Assembly: GCA_037142075.1 (NCBI GenBank)
Contig: JBAXBJ010000013.1
Location: 6,228 to 70,227, forward strand
Origin: Bacteroidota bacterium
GTDB taxonomy: Bacteria > Bacteroidota > Bacteroidia > Bacteroidales > UBA4417
DNA length: 64,000 bases
Direction: 5' to 3'
Shown: piece after piece, positions 2,533-55,772 of the stretch
How positions within the stretch are numbered: the first letter of the stretch is position 1
Layout: every line of letters begins with the position of its first letter
Translations under genes and position numbers: made by a program
The notes under the pieces: model-generated
The model's database searches: none
What the model saw: the letters and a program-made list of their open reading frames with translations, nothing else
What the model was told of the DNA's origin: nothing

Positions 2533-3093
2533 TTAAAGCAAGGGCATTGCAAGCATCGATTCTTTTACCAGTTGACGGGCACGCATGTACTGCGTTTTGG
2601 AAGTGGATTCCGAAATATGTAAAATCTCCGAAATCTCACTGTGATCGTAGCCTTCGAGGAGATAGAGCGAAAATATTACTCTTGCTCCTTCAGGTAGCAG
2701 GTTCATTGCTTTTTTCACCCTTTCGACACTCAGGTGTAATTCCTCTTCATCGATACTTTCATCAGCGACAGCTGGAACGTATAACTCTGTTATTTCTTCA
2801 TCTACCCAGTTTATCTTCCTCTTTTCGAGTGCATTAATGCATTTGTTGATAACAATTTTCTTCAGCCATGCTCCGAATGTCGATTCGAACCTGAACGATC
2901 CGAGGTGGCCGAAGGCGTCAATAAAACCTTCCTGCAGCATATCCCGGGCTTCTTCGGCATTGTTCATCATCCGGTAGCAGATATTATACATAGCTTTTGA
3001 ATACGAATTGTATAACTCGTTGTATGCCTTCCGGTTACCGGCTTTACATGCCTCAACCAGTTGCCTGTGTATGTCGAAATTCCCCTGGTTCAA
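2533..3093 (-). CDS. RNA polymerase ECF-type sigma-70 family factor
   Basis: 186 aa. Region 2-like segment: YNELYNSYSKAMYNICYRMMNNAEEARDMLQEGFIDAF. Region 4 HTH: GYDHSEISEILHISESTSKTQYMRARQLV. Confidence 0.9.
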   Translation of the reverse strand: MNQGNFDIHRQLVEACKAGNRKAYNELYNSYSKAMYNICYRMMNNAEEARDMLQEGFIDAFGHLGSFRFESTFGAWLKKIVINKCINALEKRKINWVDEEITELYVPAVADESIDEEELHLSVERVKKAMNLLPEGARVIFSLYLLEGYDHSEISEILHISESTSKTQYMRARQLVKESMLAMPLL

Positions 3094-3242
3094 GCTGCCG
3101 GCCCCGCGTTTTTAGTTATAATGACAGAATAAATTTATAAGGGTTGTAAAATTGGATTAAAAATAAATAATAAATCCGGCTCTGCTGATTTACCGGAACT
3201 AAACCGGAAACAACACGGTTATGATACGGTATTCTGGTATTG

Positions 3243-5255
3243 TTAAAATGAAGTTTTAAATCCGCAGGCACCACAAAATTTCGATCCGGGTTTTAAAGGA
3301 TTTCCGCATGAGGGACAGAATTTCGGTGCAGGCATAGGTGGAGGCGTTTGAGCCACAGGCTTTTGCTGGTATACATTTCCGACAGGCGAATCGACCGGCG
3401 AAACCGTGTATGGAGAATTCTGCATTTTTTTAAACCTGGTTTTTTTTCTCCGCCGAACCAACCCGGCAATTATTGCAAGTATGAATACGATACTACCGGC
3501 TAGCATAAATACCTGGCTGTGCAGGAATTTTTTCCAGCCTATCGCATCAGTGCTTCCTTCTTCAGGGATTTCGACAACTTTAACCCCCGGGGTGCTTTCT
3601 GCAATCAGCTGCCATTGCCTGCTCACTGCCTGAACATCAACTTCCGTTGTCGACGTAACGGTATTAAAGTCGGATGAAACCGATTCGCCCTGATGGATAG
3701 CAACCGATTCGCCGCTTTTGTTAAACTTGAGGTCAACATTTCCTTCCAGCAGATCGAGCTTCATGGTTTGTTCGCTGACAAAGAGCGAAAATCGGGTTCC
3801 CTTCAGCACCAGTCCGCAATCTTTCAGCTCAATAATGACCTCGCCTTCGCTGGTACTATGCCCGTTGAAATACAAATTCCCCTTATCAACATGAATCTTC
3901 ATTACTCCTGCATCATCTGACACAATTTTGAATTGTGTGTTCGGACCTGCAGTAAGTATCCCTTTTGGCAACAGGCTTAAGGTAAGGTTGCCTTTTTCGC
4001 GAACTACGTAGGTTGTGCCAATATAACTGGTGCCCAGTCGGGTATACCTGTCGCTATTAACCCGGCTCTGTTCTCCCCAGGGATCGATGTAGTATACAGA
4101 GTCATTAGCTGTAAGCACCTGGCCTAAGTAAGGAATGCTCTTTTTTACCAGACCTGTACCTCCACATTCAACAGTTTGTGCTCCAAGCGGAACAGCTTGT
4201 TTTCCATTAATCAATACTTCCTGATCCCCTTCATTGAGTTCGAAAGTATTGGGCCCGCAACAGGCCGCATGGGAGCCGTTATCCCCAACAACCACAGCTG
4301 GCAAGCCATTGATGTTTACACCTGCACTGCCATTTATATAGCCTACAGTTTTATGAGGACAGGCAGGACAACCATGCGCATCGGCTAAACAAATAGTATA
4401 GCAACCCGTGTGAGCATAAAGAGAGGCCTTTACAACCTCCACCGTAATCTCTTTTCTATATTCATTCCCCTGGGCGTCAATAGCCGTTAAAATAATTTTA
4501 TTCGATCCCGTTTTTTCAAATACGGGACTTGATAGGGGTCCATGGTCAGGTGTAAAACTTGCGGTTCCGCTCCACTTAATATCATTTGAAAGATCGACTT
4601 CGTTCTCGGTACCTTCGTTAAGTATGCAACTGGCTCCAAATTTCCAGCCTTTGTCGAAAACCCTCGGACTTTCCCCCAACGGGTATGTAAGTTGCAAACC
4701 TTCACCCGCCGAAAGCGAAGCTGTATAGGAAAGGAATTCGGTACCTCCGCCCTCTTCACTATTGGTAATAGTCAGTTTACCGGCAATCTGCGAACTGCTT
4801 CCGCTGGAAGTAATCTGGCCGGAAAGCCTGAAACTGACCTGCCCGGTTCCGTTCTGCTTGCCGTCGAGCATAATCAGGGTAGTTGTGCCGGGCGCACTAA
4901 AAGAAGTTCCATGCAATTCCCCATTAAAAGTGCCTGTAAAATGAACATATTCCTCATGTTTCTCTGACGACCCTCCTACAAAATTGAGCTTGCCGCTTAC
5001 TACTCCCGATTTATCAATCGAAATAGTAAGTTGATTTTCATAATAAGCAACACCTTTGGCTGAACCAGGAGGCAGCGAGAATTTCCCTTTGTAAAGACCT
5101 TCCGTCTGCGCTTTTAACTGCAAGCTACAGCACAGGATAATAATAAAAACCGGAATAAGTGATAATCGGATACTGCCTTTACTTTTCGTTTTTGCACAGC
5201 TCATAGCTTTACAGATTGGAAAAGTAAATGTATAAAAAAAACAAATTCGTGACAT
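3243..5255 (-). CDS. single-pass membrane protein: signal peptide, PAAR-like domain, FecR-like domain, TM, C-terminal zinc ribbon
   Basis: 670-aa ORF; the start may be M18 at 5204. The signal peptide ends in ..CCSLQLKAQ. PAAR-like segment at about nt 4140-4425: AHGCPACPHKTVGYINGSAGVNINGLPAVVVGDNGSHAACCGPNTFELNEGDQEVLINGKQAVPLGAQTVECGG. FecR-like segment at about 3696-4013. TM: VFMLAGSIVFILAIIAGLV followed by RRRKK. Zinc ribbon: CPSCGNPLKPGSKFCGACG. Confidence 0.85.
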   Translation of the reverse strand: MSRICFFYTFTFPICKAMSCAKTKSKGSIRLSLIPVFIIILCCSLQLKAQTEGLYKGKFSLPPGSAKGVAYYENQLTISIDKSGVVSGKLNFVGGSSEKHEEYVHFTGTFNGELHGTSFSAPGTTTLIMLDGKQNGTGQVSFRLSGQITSSGSSSQIAGKLTITNSEEGGGTEFLSYTASLSAGEGLQLTYPLGESPRVFDKGWKFGASCILNEGTENEVDLSNDIKWSGTASFTPDHGPLSSPVFEKTGSNKIILTAIDAQGNEYRKEITVEVVKASLYAHTGCYTICLADAHGCPACPHKTVGYINGSAGVNINGLPAVVVGDNGSHAACCGPNTFELNEGDQEVLINGKQAVPLGAQTVECGGTGLVKKSIPYLGQVLTANDSVYYIDPWGEQSRVNSDRYTRLGTSYIGTTYVVREKGNLTLSLLPKGILTAGPNTQFKIVSDDAGVMKIHVDKGNLYFNGHSTSEGEVIIELKDCGLVLKGTRFSLFVSEQTMKLDLLEGNVDLKFNKSGESVAIHQGESVSSDFNTVTSTTEVDVQAVSRQWQLIAESTPGVKVVEIPEEGSTDAIGWKKFLHSQVFMLAGSIVFILAIIAGLVRRRKKTRFKKMQNSPYTVSPVDSPVGNVYQQKPVAQTPPPMPAPKFCPSCGNPLKPGSKFCGACGFKTSF

Positions 5256-22698: not shown

Positions 22699-22735
22699 GG
22701 ATGTATTTTGTTGAATTTGTTAATTACATTATTTT

Positions 22736-22855
22736 GTTTCAGAGTTTCGGGTTTCAGAGTTTCATGTTTCAGAGTTTCATGTTTCAGAGTTTCATGTTTC
22801 CGAGTTTCATGTTTCAGAATTTCTGGTTTCAGAATTTCTGGTTTTCGAATTCCTG
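22736..22855 (+). repeat. tandem 15-mer array (GTTTCAGAGTTTCAT) x8
   Basis: Eight consecutive units degenerating to GTTTCAGAATTTCTG. The array is complementary in motif to the CTGAAAC-rich array at 22890-23080. Confidence 0.9.
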
Positions 22856-22889
22856 TTAGAACTGAGCTATAAGTTGAAGCAAGTCATTA

Positions 22890-23080
22890 CTGAAAGCAAG
22901 TTTCTCTTGATAACCAACCCTGAAACCTGAAACCCTGAAACTTTTTTCAACCCTGAAAGCAAGTTTCTCTCGATAACCACCCCTGAAACCTGAAACCCTG
23001 AAACTTTTTCAATCCTGAAAGCAAGTTTCTCTTGATAACCAACTCTGAAACCCTGAAACTTGAAACCCTGAAATTTTTAA
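22890..23080 (+). repeat. three tandem ~62-nt units, each CTGAAAGCAAGTTTCTCTTGATAACCA + (CCTGAAAC)n
   Basis: Units start at about 22890, 22952 and 23014. The CTGAAAC tracts are the reverse complement of the GTTTCAG array at 22736-22855. Confidence 0.85.
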
Positions 23081-48095: not shown

Positions 48096-48147
48096 AGGTT
48101 GATGTGTGGTGAAAATGTACAGGCAAAGATAAGGGTTTTGGGCAAGT

Positions 48148-48252
48148 GATAATGGATAATGGACAATGGATAATGGACAATTGAAAATGGTTAATCGTTA
48201 ATTGAAAATGGTTAATCGTTAATTGAAAATGGTTAATTATAAATCGAAATCC
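48148..48252 (+). repeat. 15 phased heptads G-N-N-A-A-T-N (GATAATG GACAATG ... GAAAATG GTTAATC GTTAATT x3)
   Basis: Read directly from the sequence. It includes three copies of the 21-mer GAAAATGGTTAATCGTTAATT. It lies between holB and the PIN gene, at the left island junction. Confidence 0.9.
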
Positions 48253-48352: not shown

Positions 48353-48898
48353 TCAGGCTACAAATGATATTATCTCTAAATTGTGATTCGTATACTTTAT
48401 AAAATCCTGGTCATCAGTCACTATTTTCCATTTATTGATAGTTGCTAATTCAATATAGTAACCGTCATTGAAATCAACGTCTCCAAAATGATTTAGAATA
48501 TTATCTATTGTTATTGAATTGAAATTATCAGTTTGTTTTTCGCAAAGGGCTATTATTTTTCGCAACGAATCTTTAACCTCAGCCACTGTATCCAGATATC
48601 GTTTAGTGCCCACATAATCATCTTTAAATTTCGCATCAGGAAAGCCGCTTGACTTAAGCCATAAAGCAAAATCCATCCGTAAATAGCGGTTAGCAAATTC
48701 CGACAGAATTAAACTTGAAGTAAAAATAGTGCTCTTTGCAGTATCAACACTTTTTAATAAAGCTGAGTAGTGTTTCTGTCTTGACTTATTATACTCTCCT
48801 AATGGACAGAATAAGTACATCCAGATATTATTATCAAAAAAGAAAATATCTAATCCCTTTGCTGTATAGGTTTTTACATCAATAACTCTAGCTGCCAT
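48353..48898 (-). CDS. PIN-domain nuclease
   Basis: 181 aa. The four acidic PIN positions are D22 (IFFFDNN), E67 (SLILSEF), D145 (DFNDGYYIELA) and D163 (IVTDDQDF). Its start overlaps the upstream stop (ATGGCAGCTAG). Confidence 0.75.
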   Translation of the reverse strand: MAARVIDVKTYTAKGLDIFFFDNNIWMYLFCPLGEYNKSRQKHYSALLKSVDTAKSTIFTSSLILSEFANRYLRMDFALWLKSSGFPDAKFKDDYVGTKRYLDTVAEVKDSLRKIIALCEKQTDNFNSITIDNILNHFGDVDFNDGYYIELATINKWKIVTDDQDFIKYTNHNLEIISFVA

Positions 48899-49244
48899 AT
48901 ATTATTTCATTTGCAGTATCCTCAAAATCGGTATGATGGCTAAAAAAATCTTTTGCTCTTTCAATAACTTTAATAAATAGTCTGGTATCCTCAGGTTTGA
49001 TATTTTTAAGTTCTAACTTCTGATTCAAGTCATCACTGGAATATTTACTATACAATTGACCGATAGCTGCATTAAGGAATGCTGTAATTATAAGATCAAT
49101 GTTTTGGAAATCTAGTTGAACAGATAGCCCTTGTGATATCGCTGCATCTATTTTGCGGAAAATATTCGTCCCATCTTCAACGCTGATGGCTGAATTTCCT
49201 CCGACTTCTTCAAAAATTGTGATAATGAATTTATCGTTGCCCAT
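48888..49244 (-). CDS. STAS-like DUF4325 protein (SpoIIAA/RsbV-fold)
   Basis: About 118 aa from MGNDKFIITIFEE; the track ORF starts at 49277 and would overlap the upstream gene. The core SVQLDFQNIDLIITAFLNAAIGQLY matches the DUF4325 pattern. Confidence 0.7.
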   Translation of the reverse strand: MGNDKFIITIFEEVGGNSAISVEDGTNIFRKIDAAISQGLSVQLDFQNIDLIITAFLNAAIGQLYSKYSSDDLNQKLELKNIKPEDTRLFIKVIERAKDFFSHHTDFEDTANEIIYGS

Positions 49245-49257
49245 GCTGCAAAAGTAA

Positions 49258-50163
49258 TTAAAATTTAATTTCTTCAATAACCTCTTCTTTCAAATAATAA
49301 AAGGATGCATCATCAAGGTTGAATTCTATATTAACAATTGTACCAGGAAATTCATTTTGCATCGTTTTCGACATAATGTTACCTTTATTCGATTCCCAGT
49401 ATCCATCAGAAGAAACAATCTGCAGTTTGCCATTGTTCAGGCGTACAAACTCAGTTATGATTTTTAATCCTAAACCACCAGGTATATTGCCGGTTATGGG
49501 TTTTGTGGAATGATTCTCTTCAACTGCCCATTCAACTGCTTCTTGCCCTGTATAGGATACGTTTAAAAACGTGTTAACATTATTTTTAATGGTATTTCCC
49601 AGATCAACAATTGTAAAATCAATTCTGGGTGGAACCATTCTAGGGAAATATTGTCCGCAGCTATAAACAAATTCGCAACTTCCATGAAGAATAGCATTGC
49701 TAAAAATTTCAAAAATGCTTCGTTCAATTTCTTTATGAGCCAAAGGGCTGAGTTTAGGGAATTCCTGTTTTCCCAGGAGATCGTTCGATAAGAAATGATG
49801 TATCAGCTTTTCATCCGTTAACCTGTTTTTCCGGTATTTTATCGTTGTATTATTAAAGTCTTCTATCTTTTCGCCTCCAAAAGATGCCAGAAAATGATTT
49901 CTGCTTAGGATATCCCGCTGTTTGCCCGGGACGTTTTCGAACTTAATATTATTGAAGTTATCCTGTGCTTTGCTAAACAATGCTCCAAGAATGGCACATA
50001 GATTAGCTTCGAACCACGTATTGTCTTTAAAATCAAGGATAATAACGTCGAATAATAATTCTGATGACAACTTATTCAGGCTGGCCAAATAACTGTATCC
50101 TTCAAAATCACTACATACACGGTAGGGCAATTCAAAACGCATTTTTCTAAATATTTTGATCAA
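49258..50163 (-). CDS. GHKL-superfamily ATPase / putative Ser-Thr kinase (RsbW/SpoIIAB-like) with an N-terminal STAS-like segment
   Basis: 301 aa. N-box ERSIFEIFSNAILHG, G1-like IVDLGNT, G2 GNIPGGLGLKII. The N-terminal VIILDFKDNTWFEANLCAILGALF resembles the DUF4325 core. A possible own promoter CAAATGTA (reverse complement TACATTTG) lies at 50165-50172, which would favour the start at M8 (50142). Confidence 0.7.
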   Translation of the reverse strand: MIKIFRKMRFELPYRVCSDFEGYSYLASLNKLSSELLFDVIILDFKDNTWFEANLCAILGALFSKAQDNFNNIKFENVPGKQRDILSRNHFLASFGGEKIEDFNNTTIKYRKNRLTDEKLIHHFLSNDLLGKQEFPKLSPLAHKEIERSIFEIFSNAILHGSCEFVYSCGQYFPRMVPPRIDFTIVDLGNTIKNNVNTFLNVSYTGQEAVEWAVEENHSTKPITGNIPGGLGLKIITEFVRLNNGKLQIVSSDGYWESNKGNIMSKTMQNEFPGTIVNIEFNLDDASFYYLKEEVIEEIKF

Positions 50164-50251
50164 TCAAATGTAGTTATTTTTACCTGATTCGTTCTTATTA
50201 TAGACAATTAAGCAATATCAGTATGGTAATGCATTTGTCTTATTCCCAATT

Positions 50252-53200
50252 TCAAAGATACTTCTTCATTACCGCTTGTTTCTGTTCTGTGGCGCCACTA
50301 ATAACTACCTCGCAATCCACAATTTTTTGCTCTAAAATTTCTATCTTTTTAACCAATTGAGCTTGTTCTTTTTGCGAGGGTACAGGGATTTTATAGCTTT
50401 CATAAAATGATGCGGGAACTCTTCTGTGACCGCTTGCTCCTGTAAAGTTCTGTTCTGCCTCTTTTCTCACTTTCTCACGGTTTAACATAGAAAACAGGTA
50501 TTTGCTTAAGACCTCTCCCTTTGTTCTGATAACATGAAACTCGGAACTTCCCATCGCAATACCATTTGTCAAACCTATTGCCAGAGCACACTTTCCGTTT
50601 TCCATGCACGGAGTTATCTTCGCAATAATAATATCATTATCAGCAAAATAAGTGTAACTGCCTTTTTTTAATTCTTTTAATGGTCTGTCTGTTTTAAAAA
50701 CTATATATCCCCTTTCGCTTACTGAAGCCATTTCAACAAATGAAACAATAGTATCTTCATCTACCTTTCTGATTTCGGTTTTAGAAGGATTAATAAAGGC
50801 TATCTCCGAAATTTTCTTTTCAGGAGCGTTTTCAAATTCGGCTTCAACCAATTCCTCAATTTTCCTTTTTGAATCATCAATTTCCTTTTTTGCATCAATT
50901 GCGGTATTATAAATTGTCTCACATTCAGAGACGATTTGTTGCTGAACTGATGGAGGTGGTAATGGAATCCGAAAGTTTGAAAGTTCAGTTTTTGATACTT
51001 CTTTAAACGTCATTCCTCCTGCTAATGCAGCAATATCCTCAGAATAATATTTAAGAGCTTCGTACAGAAATTCATGTTTTATTTTTGACTCATCACAAAT
51101 AAAGTTTTTATATCCTTGATTCGTTGATGTTTCAACTTTTGCAATGGAAACTTCTCCAATAGTAGCACGGCTCGAAAAAATCACAGTATTGACCGGCAAT
51201 AATTTTGCACTACTGTTTTTTAAACCGTCACTCGTTATCTTTCTTTGAGTTGAGTAGAGATATCGTTCTTTTGTATCAACTAAGGTTGCCCAGTTTATTT
51301 CCCCATCCCAAAATTTTGGCTCAACTGAACTTGGCGTTCCTCCTGATTGAATTTCAGCTATTTCTCCCAATTTCACAAGGTCCCATTTAGATTCAATGAC
51401 AAAATTTTTCTTTGGTGTTAGCGAAATTGCCTTGTTGATATCCTTACGCGAAAAATCAAGAAGATCTTCCAATTTTGCAATTGTAACAAAGGCTTGTAAT
51501 TCATCCGGAATATTTGAGAGCAAACCTTGATAATTCTGTTGAATAAGGAAGTTTATTTTATTGGCATTGCTACGGTTTAGGGGATCGAACATGGGTGTTA
51601 CAATATCATATATGGTTTCGCCGCCATTGTATTTAATGCCCTCGCTGCCCTTTGCACCGCTCCACTCATAACCCAAAAACTGCTTTTGTTCTTTATTTTC
51701 TGATGGGCTTTTCACAATCAGCACTTTTTGCGAATTGCTATCTGCCAGCATAAAGTAATAGAGCTTGCTTTTTTCGATATCAAGCAAGTATTTTAAGAAT
51801 CGTTTATCCAGCTCAACTTGCTGTTCGGTTTGCAACCTAATTCGTCGTCCTGCTATGTCGGACTGCACTAACCGTTGCAAATCAGCTTCTGAATACTGTG
51901 TTTTATCCTCCTTTTGCTTTTTTCGCAATTCCGTTAAAATGGTCTTAGGCAAGTCAACTAATTTCTTTCTAAAGCTGTCTTTAAGGTTGATTATTTCGGT
52001 GCTTTTGTCAAAATCATGGGTATAGTCCTTAAACATTTCATACTGTAGCAATACCGTTAACTTGCTTATAGGTTGTGTATTGGCAACAAGCAGCAACCTG
52101 TAATCATCAAACGGAATATCAATATGCTTACAATATCTTTTCACCACATCTATGTCTAAGTATGCTCCCCCTCCCGATTTCTCTTCATCAGCCCAATTAT
52201 CAAAGAAATCTAGAGTCCGGTTCCAGAAATGAACGGCAGGTTCCGGGAGTTGGGCTTTTCTCTTGAGAAACAAAATAACAGTATTGGTTCCGGTTTTACC
52301 AAACGTACCACTTCCCAGTTCAACAATACTTACAAAGTCAAAATACTTTAAGAGTATTTCACGTGTTGCAATATGCATGGTATCCGAATTGGATAGTATT
52401 GAGCTAGGCACTATAATTCCGGCCACTCCATTACCGGCTAAAAGCTGTTTTGCCCGCTCCAGAAAGAAACATTGTATATTCTTATTGCCAAGATCCGAGA
52501 CGGTATCTAGAAGTTCGTATTTTTCCCGTTCTGTATCTTCCAGAGTCATTAAAAAATCCTCAACCGCGAAAGGAGGATTGGCTATCAGCACATCGAAATT
52601 GTCATTTTTTATTTTTGGATGGGTTGCTAAAGCATCGGAGTCAATGATGTTAATTTCTTCATGCCCATACATAAATGCCGAAACTTTAGCCACTTTGGCT
52701 AAGCGGTCTTCTTTTTCAATTCCATAAATGTTTTTATAATACTCCGAAGGTTCAACTTGTTTGTACTGCTTAACCAAAGGCTTTATTTGCAAGGCATATT
52801 CGGTAAGGAAATGGCCTGCGCCGCATGCATAGTCAATCACTTTTAGTGTTTCGTTGCTTTTTTCGAGCTGGCTTTCCAAAGGAAGCGACATAACGATAAA
52901 TTTACAAATCGGAATTGGAGTGAAGAATTGCCCTTCTGTTTGTTTTATGCCGTTATCTAAAAAGTATTCAAACATATCGCCCAGTATCTGGTGTTGCTCA
53001 TTTGTTTTCAGGCGTAAGCCCTGCCACATTTGAATAATCTCCAGAAGGACTTTGGCATTTTTATTAAAATACTCTTTGTTATGCACCTTTATAAAATCAA
53101 AATCAAGTCCTTTATAAAATTTCAACTCCCTGAAAATCTCCTTAATCCTTTGTTTGGTTGCATTCCGTTTTTGCTTTACCGCCCAGAATGCGTCGTCAAT

Positions 53201-54202
53201 CTCCTTAGTGCTTACATATACGATGTCCTGGTGCAAAAACTTACCCATTCCAATTTTGTAGAGTTCCTGTAACCTGTCGACAAGGTCAAAATAATTATCA
53301 TAGGCAATACCCTTCCAATAAAACTTGAGCTCAGCTGAATTTTCAATTTCATCTACAATCTTGCAAAGAAACAGGTTCACTAATACTTCAAAGGCATTTT
53401 CGCGTCGTGAAACATTATATTTTCTGAGTATGGTGCGAAATTGGTGATACTTGCCTTTAATGTTCAGGGTATCCAACACTTTTGTATCGATGGCAAGCGT
53501 ATACTTATTCTTACCAATCTGGTATGCCTGTATGTTTTCCTCGAAAATTCCCTGTTCTGTTGATTCCAGTTGATATGTATCTTTCCAAGCTTTAAACCGT
53601 TCCTTTACATTCTTAGCATCTTTGAAACTTTTAAGTTTGGGATCATCCGTTAATATTATTTCGTTGTCCTTATGCGAAATAATCCGGTGTTCAATATTTA
53701 TTGTGTTTGTCTTCTCATCAAAATCAGAGGCATAGAGACATACAAATTCAATATCTTTTTCCTGTTCAATATAGGAGAATACCTGAGCACCATCCACCTG
53801 GGTATCTTTCCAGGCATTTTCAAACTCACGTCCTGCCGTTTTGCACTCAATTATCAAAAGAGGTTTGTTTTGTTGGTCTCTTACAAAAATATCAGCACGC
53901 CCACCACTTGGTCCATGTCCAACTTTCCATTTAGGTTCAAGTTCTATATGTTCAGGCTTATATCCTTTACTAAATAAACGATGAACGCATTCGAAAACAA
54001 CAAAATTTTCAAAAGAAGCAAAGTTGCAGGTTTGCCGTTCATTTATTTTAAACCCTTTATCTTCAGGATAGATAAGCTCATTCGTATTGTAATCGGCTTT
54101 CAAATAAAAATCTCCCTTAGGAAAATGCTTAGTATAAACATTACTTTCTAACTCAAAACCGAGTGATATCAATAGTTGTTTAAAAATCTCTTTGTTTATC
54201 AT
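50252..54202 (-). CDS. single-chain Type IIB-like restriction-modification-specificity enzyme (PD-(D/E)xK nuclease + gamma-class N6-adenine MTase + two HsdS-type TRDs)
   Basis: 1316 aa. Nuclease motif D104...E119-C-K121 (GGRADIFVRDQQNKPLLIIECKTAG, nt 53840-53893). MTase motifs: QFFTP (aa 425), motif I VIDYACGAGHF (aa 455), motif IV NPPF (nt 52568-52579). Two HsdS-like target-recognition domains with conserved spacers lie at aa ~935-1316 (WDLVKLGEIAEIQSGGTP...; ISEIAFINPSK...). Confidence 0.85.
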   Translation of the reverse strand: MINKEIFKQLLISLGFELESNVYTKHFPKGDFYLKADYNTNELIYPEDKGFKINERQTCNFASFENFVVFECVHRLFSKGYKPEHIELEPKWKVGHGPSGGRADIFVRDQQNKPLLIIECKTAGREFENAWKDTQVDGAQVFSYIEQEKDIEFVCLYASDFDEKTNTINIEHRIISHKDNEIILTDDPKLKSFKDAKNVKERFKAWKDTYQLESTEQGIFEENIQAYQIGKNKYTLAIDTKVLDTLNIKGKYHQFRTILRKYNVSRRENAFEVLVNLFLCKIVDEIENSAELKFYWKGIAYDNYFDLVDRLQELYKIGMGKFLHQDIVYVSTKEIDDAFWAVKQKRNATKQRIKEIFRELKFYKGLDFDFIKVHNKEYFNKNAKVLLEIIQMWQGLRLKTNEQHQILGDMFEYFLDNGIKQTEGQFFTPIPICKFIVMSLPLESQLEKSNETLKVIDYACGAGHFLTEYALQIKPLVKQYKQVEPSEYYKNIYGIEKEDRLAKVAKVSAFMYGHEEINIIDSDALATHPKIKNDNFDVLIANPPFAVEDFLMTLEDTEREKYELLDTVSDLGNKNIQCFFLERAKQLLAGNGVAGIIVPSSILSNSDTMHIATREILLKYFDFVSIVELGSGTFGKTGTNTVILFLKRKAQLPEPAVHFWNRTLDFFDNWADEEKSGGGAYLDIDVVKRYCKHIDIPFDDYRLLLVANTQPISKLTVLLQYEMFKDYTHDFDKSTEIINLKDSFRKKLVDLPKTILTELRKKQKEDKTQYSEADLQRLVQSDIAGRRIRLQTEQQVELDKRFLKYLLDIEKSKLYYFMLADSNSQKVLIVKSPSENKEQKQFLGYEWSGAKGSEGIKYNGGETIYDIVTPMFDPLNRSNANKINFLIQQNYQGLLSNIPDELQAFVTIAKLEDLLDFSRKDINKAISLTPKKNFVIESKWDLVKLGEIAEIQSGGTPSSVEPKFWDGEINWATLVDTKERYLYSTQRKITSDGLKNSSAKLLPVNTVIFSSRATIGEVSIAKVETSTNQGYKNFICDESKIKHEFLYEALKYYSEDIAALAGGMTFKEVSKTELSNFRIPLPPPSVQQQIVSECETIYNTAIDAKKEIDDSKRKIEELVEAEFENAPEKKISEIAFINPSKTEIRKVDEDTIVSFVEMASVSERGYIVFKTDRPLKELKKGSYTYFADNDIIIAKITPCMENGKCALAIGLTNGIAMGSSEFHVIRTKGEVLSKYLFSMLNREKVRKEAEQNFTGASGHRRVPASFYESYKIPVPSQKEQAQLVKKIEILEQKIVDCEVVISGATEQKQAVMKKYL

Positions 54203-54232: not shown

Positions 54233-54240
54233 CAAAGATA
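54233..54240 (-). promoter_or_regulatory. TAnnTTTG -7 element (TATCTTTG on the minus strand) upstream of the R-M-S gene
   Basis: The plus strand reads CAAAGATA, 31 nt upstream of the ATG at 54202. Confidence 0.45.
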
Positions 54241-54320
54241 GCTAAACAAGATGTTTGGGAACTCTTATTTTTAATGCCTATCAACAAAAAATCCCCGCCA
54301 CCTCTCAGCCGCAGGGATTT

Positions 54321-54411
54321 CTCCTTTCTCCTTACTCCTTACTCATCTCTCATAACTCCTTACTCATCTCTCACAACTCATCACTCATCTCTCAAAACTC
54401 CTTACTCACTC
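54321..54411 (+). repeat. 13 phased heptads CTC-N4 (CTCCTTA CTCATCT CTCATAA ...)
   Basis: Read directly from the sequence as 21-mer super-units CTCCTTACTCATCTCTCA[TC]AA. The stop codon of the 54402-55334 gene lies inside the array. Confidence 0.9.
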
Positions 54412-55334: not shown

Positions 55335-55562
55335 AGTCCGATTTTTTAAAAATGAATTAGTATATGAATTGGTATTTATTAAAAAGCGAAATAGAGTAAT
55401 ACAAATATAAAAATATTTCAGATGTTGAAAATAGCAGACGAATATTTTTTTTAAAATGTCAAAATATCAACAGTAAACAGAGCTTGCTCCCAGCCAAACC
55501 GTGATAGATTTTTATAAAAGGAGCTTAACTGAATTTAGGCTGCACCCGCTTTCAGATAAAAG

Positions 55563-55772
55563 GCGTTTGCTTGCTTGTAATCGGTGTTTGCTTGCTTGTG
55601 ATCGGCGTTTGCTTGCTTGTAATCGGCGTTTGCTTGCTTGCAATCGTCGTTCGCTTGCTTGCAATCGTCGTTCGCTTGCTTGTAATCGGCGATTGCTTGC
55701 TTGTAATCAGCGTCTGCCTGAATGTAATCGGCGTTCGCTTGTCCGCAATCCCCAATCCCCAATCCGCAATCT
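55563..55772 (+). repeat. 30 phased heptads = ~8 copies of the 21-mer GCGTTTGCTTGCTTGTAATCG decaying into CCAATCC heptads
   Basis: Read directly from the sequence. The array ends 16 nt before the stop codon of the GH3 gene at 55788. Confidence 0.92.

Follow-up and report, generated by a model that had tools for sequence, protein, structure and literature searches.

Three tightly packed genes on the minus strand (48353..50142) of a 64,000-nucleotide (nt) stretch of Bacteroidota DNA (GenBank assembly GCA_037142075.1, contig JBAXBJ010000013.1, positions 6,228 to 70,227; hereafter the window) were analyzed, and we conclude that the trio is very probably an ordinary, intact vapKSC operon: a toxin-antitoxin system that is under the control of a kinase and has an anti-phage role. 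A first-pass annotation of the same DNA had described the three genes downstream of a restriction-modification (R-M) gene, and the open reading frames (ORFs) were found as described. It had proposed that a kinase-STAS switch gates a PIN nuclease as a toxin-control or anti-phage module, which matches the published model of the homologous Escherichia operon (PMC13373217). It had also not recognized the trio as any named anti-phage system, and had counted a catalogue entry under such a name as a refutation. That statement is out of date and the claim of novelty fails, because the trio is already catalogued as VapKSC. The system is already named and characterized, and the window copy has no feature that departs from it.

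The window trio has the features of the published vapKSC system

The vapKSC system was named by Chambers, Rani, Min, Villa and Corbett (bioRxiv 10.64898/2026.02.02.703251, February 2026; EMBO J, June 2026, PMC13373217; PDB 9Z7O). It comprises VapK, a CapK-like kinase that has both a STAS and a GHKL domain, VapS, a STAS protein that carries a short stretch at its C-terminus, and VapC, a PIN nuclease (PMC13373217). In Escherichia, VapC is toxic and its D28A mutant is not, and VapS is the antitoxin, which by itself neutralizes VapC (PMC13373217). In the crystal structure, VapS and VapC form a 2:2 complex that buries VapS S48 at their interface, and VapS brings its C-terminal helix within ∼6 Å of the VapC active site (PMC13373217). 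Neutralization is lost with the phosphomimetic S48E or upon deletion of the C-terminal tail of VapS, and S48E releases VapC (PMC13373217). The Escherichia operon confers ∼2-log protection against phage Bas42, which is lost in the VapC D28A, VapS S48A and VapK F54A mutants (PMC13373217). The coupling of PIN and DUF4325 genes had already been noted in 2017, as group PIN.4 (Matelska et al., PMC5499597).

The window trio has the same three genes in the same K-S-C order, on one strand and tightly packed. The architectures are also the same (STAS plus GHKL; STAS plus a short tail; PIN), and all mutationally validated residues are kept: the four positions functionally defined in Escherichia are present in the window as VapK N149 and W43, VapS T54 and VapC D22. 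The two systems differ in the phospho-acceptor of VapS (Thr in the window, Ser in Escherichia), in the aromatic residue at the single-stranded DNA (ssDNA) site of VapK (Trp in the window, as in CapK, and Phe in Escherichia), in a G1 box that reads DxGxT in the window, and in the host, here an uncultured Bacteroidota. These differences touch no defining feature.

The first gene, vapK (49258..50142, minus strand), encodes a 294-aa STAS plus GHKL kinase, if it starts at the ATG at 50142. This start is more likely than the TTG at 50163, which would give 301 aa. Nearly all homologues of the gene were 290–296 aa long among the 120 homologues listed, and the gene calls in three independent metagenome contigs with identical sequence are 294, 118 and 181 aa for the three genes. 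The annotation had the gene end correctly at 49258; with the ATG taken as the start, the gap to the R-M gene becomes 109 nt rather than the 88 nt that it had given. After a gap of 13 nt follows vapS (48888..49244, minus strand), which encodes, from its ATG, a STAS-like (DUF4325) antitoxin of 118 aa that ends in a short helical tail. The third gene, vapC (48353..48898, minus strand), encodes a 181-aa PIN-domain toxin and, as had been noted, overlaps vapS, by the 11 nt ATGGCAGCTAG. Spacing in the family is similar: in 72 loci the median K-S gap was +12 nt and the median S-C distance −11 nt, with the most frequent S-C overlap at 8 or 11 nt.

VapK combines an N-terminal STAS domain with a GHKL kinase fold

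Residues 1–125 of VapK (49768..50142, minus strand) were assigned to an N-terminal STAS domain from the domain model and Foldseek, and the remainder (49258..49767, minus strand) to a GHKL (Bergerat-fold) domain from its N-box, G1 and G2 motifs and its structural matches to SpoIIAB. The AlphaFold2 model, computed from a 30-sequence alignment, has two domains and is confident (predicted local distance difference test, pLDDT, 89.7; predicted template-modelling score, pTM, 0.90). When this model was compared with the PDB by Foldseek, only Bergerat/GHKL folds were retrieved (Hsp90 N-domain, RetS, CheA, GyrB and SpoIIAB), with SpoIIAB at a target-normalized template-modelling (TM) score of 0.53–0.60 and a probability of 0.97–0.99.

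Residues 1–125 were also modelled alone (pLDDT 80), and STAS domains then took nearly all top Foldseek ranks. The top matches were RsbV (TM 0.74–0.75, root-mean-square deviation 1.7 Å), SpoIIAA, the SulP STAS domain and MlaB, with a probability of ∼1.00. Since the modelled domain retrieves STAS folds, the N-terminus of VapK resembles gene 2 at the fold level. The annotation had stated that this segment mirrors the core of gene 2, and this stands for the fold (TM up to 0.75) but is not significant for the sequence profile: in hhalign the VapK N-terminus matched the VapS family profile with E = 0.044, no better than a control domain (0.075). A profile search of the PDB with VapK returned a weak STAS match (TM1442, E = 0.2).

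The VapK sequence of Escherichia sp. E4736 (residues 1–286) was taken from the AlphaFold 3 source file of PMC13373217. By BLASTP, gene 1 is 28% identical to it over 247 aa (E = 1e-26), and the alignment spans both domains. Residue conservation was read from 74 aligned sequences: those of 72 related operons, of the window and of the Escherichia proteins. The N-box, G1 and G2 motifs that had been read from the sequence are present, and their key residues are nearly invariant. The N-box residue N149 (codon 49696-49698, minus strand), which corresponds to N160 of Escherichia VapK and N218 of CapK, is found in 74/74. The same holds in 73/74 sequences for each of D180 and G182 of the G1 box (D180-x-G182, DLGNT, residues 180–184; 49591-49605, minus strand) and G223 and G225 of the G2 motif (G222-G223-L224-G225; minus strand, within 49258..49767). 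The proposed ssDNA-contact position is occupied by W43 (codon 50014-50016, minus strand), which in the BLASTP alignment pairs with F54 of Escherichia VapK (W68 in CapK); the column is Trp in 67 of the 74 sequences.

Gene 1 matched no family in Pfam or NCBIfam. The PADLOC model for DrmA, PDLC02567, weakly matched the GHKL domain of VapK (E = 1.6e-4, model positions 140–274 of 1750). Membership of gene 1 in DISARM was rejected: the weak DrmA match reflects the shared GHKL domain. That match also implies a GHKL-like segment at the N-terminus of some DrmA proteins in PDLC02567. Since PADLOC-DB v2 (2023), Pfam and NCBIfam contain no VapK model, the operon seems unclassified when standard tools are used. 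In PHROG, phrog_3364 ("unknown function") covers VapK almost end to end (E = 5.9e-37), and VapS is matched by phrog_9989 (E = 9.5e-6). The system thus exists in phages and prophages under "unknown function" labels.

VapS and VapC match the crystallized antitoxin and toxin

The STAS-like and PIN folds of genes 2 and 3, like the GHKL fold of gene 1 obtained with AlphaFold2 and Foldseek, were as anticipated, here from Pfam. Gene 2 matched DUF4325 (E = 2.2e-14), which spans residues 24–86 of the 118-aa VapS (35–97 in the Pfam result, on the 129-aa ORF submitted), and contains no winged-helix domain. When gene 2 was compared with the PDB by phmmer, it matched 9Z7O chain A, "Escherichia VapS" (E = 2.4e-11, aligned residues 12–115), and none of the three CapS structures. 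T54 of VapS (codon 49083-49085, minus strand), the predicted phospho-acceptor, aligns with S48 of Escherichia VapS. The annotation had pointed to a Thr at the phospho-Ser position of a DUF4325/STAS-like protein, and the column bears this out: it is Ser in 48 and Thr in 26 of the 74 sequences, without exception.

These results bear on a CapK/CapS-type transcriptional switch, in which the STAS protein would bind DNA and repress neighbouring genes, for instance the R-M gene or the PIN gene. CapKS and VapKS are homologous kinase-substrate pairs: CapK, too, is a GHKL kinase with an internal STAS domain, its substrate CapS is a STAS protein with a conserved phospho-Ser/Thr, an ssDNA trigger has been proposed, and capKS is often found directly downstream of R-M genes (∼20% of capKS loci lie directly downstream of an R-M operon, as in the window) (PMC13373217). 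CapKS, however, regulates CBASS, Bil, Bub and other immune operons through the winged-helix domain of CapS, which represses transcription, and CapK has an extra N-terminal helix-turn-helix (HTH), whereas the output of VapKSC is the protein-protein release of a toxin. Gene 2, with only DUF4325 and a short tail in its 118 aa and a match to VapS rather than CapS, has no winged helix. In the AlphaFold2 models the STAS domain of gene 1 begins at residue 1, with no N-terminal HTH before it, and there is no downstream immune operon: after the PIN gene comes holB. We consider such a repressor switch, which the domain content already largely refutes, the least probable reading of the trio, with hardly any weight left to it.

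Gene 3 matched Pfam PIN above the curated cut-off (E = 1.6e-6), and its acidic residues are D22, E67, D142, D145, D163 and D165. D22 aligns with the catalytic D28 of Escherichia VapC (73/74), and E67, D145 and D163, which together with D22 had been singled out as the PIN acidic residues, are kept in 72–74 of the 74 sequences. Like a VapBC type II module, the trio has a PIN toxin neutralized by a small, upstream, translationally coupled protein. It differs from VapBC in that the antitoxin position is held by a DUF4325/STAS protein with no DNA-binding domain, whereas VapB is an autoregulating AbrB-, ribbon-helix-helix- or Phd-like protein; in that VapS does not displace the active-site Mg2+ (PMC13373217); and in that the published VapKSC model releases the toxin by phosphorylation, not by proteolysis of the antitoxin.

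The operon is conserved as a mobile cassette

One genome per GTDB species was scanned. A query with the single protein gave nothing, its patterns being too specific, and the query with the VapK alignment succeeded, giving 158 relatives, of which 80 loci were fetched. Co-conservation of the three genes, on which the annotation had made its reading depend, was confirmed: in tblastn searches with the three window proteins, the K-S-C order on one strand was found in 74 of the 80 loci. Of the six exceptions, four end at a contig edge and two hold truncated vapC remnants. In L051 (10001-11370, a Latescibacterota metagenome-assembled genome, MAG), vapC is a 70-aa C-terminal fragment and vapK is intact; in L072 (10001-11591, a Spirochaetia MAG), only 88 aa of vapS are left, vapC is a 142-aa fragment and vapK is again intact. 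We rejected the possibility that these two are alternative-effector variants, as they are decayed copies with vapC fragments; in them the kinase was retained while the toxin-antitoxin part was lost.

The relatives come from Bacteroidota, Planctomycetota, Poribacteria, Chloroflexota, Nitrospirota, Proteobacteria, Spirochaetota and other phyla. Two of them, from Bacteroidetes bacterium GWA2_30_7 (L020, 61% VapK identity) and Nitrosomonas nitrosa Nm90 (L073, 37% VapK identity), are listed as vapKSC in Dataset EV3 of PMC13373217, as is a copy on a Deinococcus gobiensis plasmid. Because relatives are listed there, the window operon belongs to the published family by a direct chain of homology and not just by resemblance.

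None of the 83 other loci (three metagenome contigs and 80 genome loci) shares the genes that flank the operon in the window, and in other genomes the vapKSC cassette lies amid unrelated housekeeping genes. A complete vapK-vapS-vapC set adjoins the prophage integrase in Streptococcus phage Javan172 (L088, MK448860.1, locus 2893-4680). There the vapC ORF (locus ∼4155-4680; E = 8e-32 with the family hidden Markov model) has no GenBank annotation, and vapK is labelled "ATPase-like protein". The vapKSC cassette is mobile.

A working mechanism, and what weighs against it

In the proposed mechanism, VapS, through its STAS domain and short C-terminal helix, would bind VapC, the PIN RNase, in unstressed cells, forming a 2:2 complex in which the active site is blocked. 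Upon phage infection or DNA damage, ssDNA would bind at the interface of the VapK STAS and GHKL domains near W43 and turn the kinase on, through W43 and N149. VapK would then phosphorylate VapS at T54, predicted to lie in the VapS-VapC interface; phospho-VapS would dissociate, and free VapC would cleave RNA and stop growth (abortive infection). For the window locus, the complex and the toxicity of VapC would follow by homology from the Escherichia experiments, whereas the phosphorylation step and the ssDNA trigger would be carried over, likewise by homology, from what is a model even in Escherichia.

The annotation had framed the switch as partner switching in the manner of RsbW/RsbV or SpoIIAB/SpoIIAA, in whose classical form the GHKL protein would sequester the PIN nuclease and the unphosphorylated STAS protein would displace it. 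The GHKL and STAS folds do resemble SpoIIAB, SpoIIAA and RsbV, the STAS protein has a conserved phospho-acceptor, and both systems pair a Bergerat-fold Ser kinase with a single-domain STAS substrate phosphorylated on its second helix. In the window, however, the kinase has its own fused STAS domain, and the four-gene island that holds the trio encodes neither a sigma factor, as the annotation had already noticed, nor a PP2C phosphatase. In Escherichia it is the STAS protein, not the kinase, that binds and directly inhibits the PIN effector, and VapS neutralizes VapC on its own (PMC13373217). Partner switching in this strict sense did not survive the comparison and is very improbable for the trio.

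Several points weigh against reading the trio as a VapKSC anti-phage operon. Identity to the characterized VapK is only 28%. The single sequence of gene 3 matched 9Z7O chain C, "Escherichia VapC", marginally (E = 0.033); this was resolved with a profile of 18 gene 3 relatives, for which 9Z7O chain C was the only match in the PDB (E = 2.9e-15). In the window VapK, Thr takes the place of the second glycine of the G1 box (DxGxG), and nucleotide handling could differ with it; as the family splits into Thr 35, Gly 32 and Ser 6 at this position, the Thr is clade variation and not decay. Escherichia VapK was insoluble, and phosphorylation of VapS and activation by ssDNA rest on AlphaFold 3 models and on the S48A and F54A phenotypes (PMC13373217). 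Protection was demonstrated for one phage only, Bas42, and 64% of the catalogued vapKSC loci have no defence neighbour (PMC13373217). Physiologically, the system may do more than defend against phages.

The single phage and the 64% of loci also favour a different role, in which the trio would be mainly an addiction or stress toxin-antitoxin module that stabilizes the island or answers endogenous DNA damage, with no significant anti-phage role in this host. VapS and VapC do act as a toxin-antitoxin pair (PMC13373217), and housekeeping genes surround the cassette in related genomes. Nevertheless, the neighbour of the window copy in its low-GC island is a Type IIG R-M gene, 36% of the catalogued loci are within 10 kb of defence genes (PMC13373217), one copy adjoins the Streptococcus prophage integrase, and a PHROG family exists for VapK. 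A mainly addiction or stress role is unlikely, yet better placed than either of the two switches considered above, and it and an anti-phage role are not mutually exclusive.

Taken together, the results argue that (i) the window trio belongs to VapKSC, which we hold with high confidence; and (ii) the full mechanism in this host is somewhat less certain than membership, because the kinase step is a model even in Escherichia.

The R-M gene is a co-resident of the same low-GC island

The operon and the R-M gene form a 5.85-kb low-GC island (48353..54202, no strand) between housekeeping genes. The island consists of these four genes, whose GC content is 0.32–0.37, compared with 0.44–0.47 for the flanking genes; it is bordered on one side by holB, the next gene downstream of vapC, and on the other by a CarboxypepD_reg gene. 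The flanking housekeeping genes encode HolB, PSP1, PBP1A, a CarboxypepD_reg protein and GH3. The low GC content that the R-M gene and vapKSC share suggests that they arrived together.

The R-M neighbour, which lies outside the system (50252..54202, minus strand), encodes a single-chain Type IIG enzyme of 1316 aa. The reading of it as a single-chain restriction, modification and specificity enzyme was borne out by a full-length match to PADLOC REase_MTase_IIG (E = 0) and by the Pfam domains HSDR_N_2 (the nuclease N-terminus), N6_Mtase, Eco57I and two copies of Methylase_S, i.e., two specificity domains.

Adjacency to R-M genes across genomes, which the annotation had raised, is not a conserved pairing. 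R-M homologues were found near vapKSC in only a handful of other loci, and were distant and of low identity; the R-M gene was therefore rejected as a conserved partner. In Dataset EV3, R-M systems are near ∼10% of the vapKSC loci, and Type IIG enzymes near 5/289. The Type IIG gene shares its acquired island with vapKSC but is not conserved as a partner of it.

Restriction-generated DNA damage has been suggested to feed CapK-type sensors, as proposed for capKS (PMC13373217). By analogy, restriction and end processing of incoming DNA might yield ssDNA that would turn VapK on, so that the R-M enzyme and vapKSC would act as a coupled two-layer defence. We regard such coupling as doubtful. If it were true, the PIN toxin would act only once restriction, the first line, was engaged and was failing.

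Sequence motifs, repeats and a candidate terminator around the island

TAnnTTTG is the −7 promoter consensus of Bacteroidota. A match, TACATTTG (50165..50172, minus strand), lies 23 nt upstream of the vapK ATG and is a candidate for the operon's own promoter. Such motifs were seen 23–31 nt upstream of the R-M, vapK and holB starts (54233-54240, 50165-50172 and 48124-48131, respectively, all on the minus strand). The motif is not enriched in the window (73 found vs. 69.5 expected); by its position alone, the copy at 50165-50172 could be a separate Bacteroidota-type vapK promoter, for which this is weak evidence. A scan of the island for sigma-70 promoters and terminators gave counts at or below the shuffled expectation, and a scan of this kind is uninformative for a Bacteroidota genome. 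An Rfam scan of 47.5–56.5 kb returned no match.

Tandem arrays that repeat every 21 nt, with a 7-nt sub-period, were observed between genes at 48148-48237, 54334-54408 and 55562-55741. Their units, TAATCGTTAATTGAAAATGGT, ACTCCTTACTCATCTCTCAAA and GGCGTTTGCTTGCTTGTAATC (8.6 copies), are unrelated in sequence. A further array, with periods of 15, 30 and 63 nt, lies at 22735-23066. Two arrays bracket the island, but with others found outside it the arrays look like a feature of intergenic DNA across the genome. At 54285-54320 (minus strand), directly after a 21-nt array and downstream of the CarboxypepD_reg gene, a hairpin precedes a T-run (aatccctgcggctgagaggtggcggggatttttt). This hairpin is likely a terminator that marks the upstream edge of the island, although the consensus terminator scan did not report it.

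Implications for the VapKSC family

What the annotation found here was a correct rediscovery: a paper of 2026 had already described the system with its architecture, key residues and working mechanism, and it catalogues close relatives of the window copy. A genuine defence system, and the right class of mechanism for it, were recovered from sequence reading alone. Annotation pipelines label vapKSC genes as hypothetical, "ATP-binding" or "STAS-like", and VapK goes unrecognized by the model collections named above. The Bacteroidota VapKSC clade, with 158 relatives among the genomes of GTDB species, extends further than one would expect from the 289 IMG instances. Unlike Escherichia VapK, a VapK from Bacteroidota might prove soluble and would then permit a biochemical demonstration of ssDNA-activated phosphorylation.

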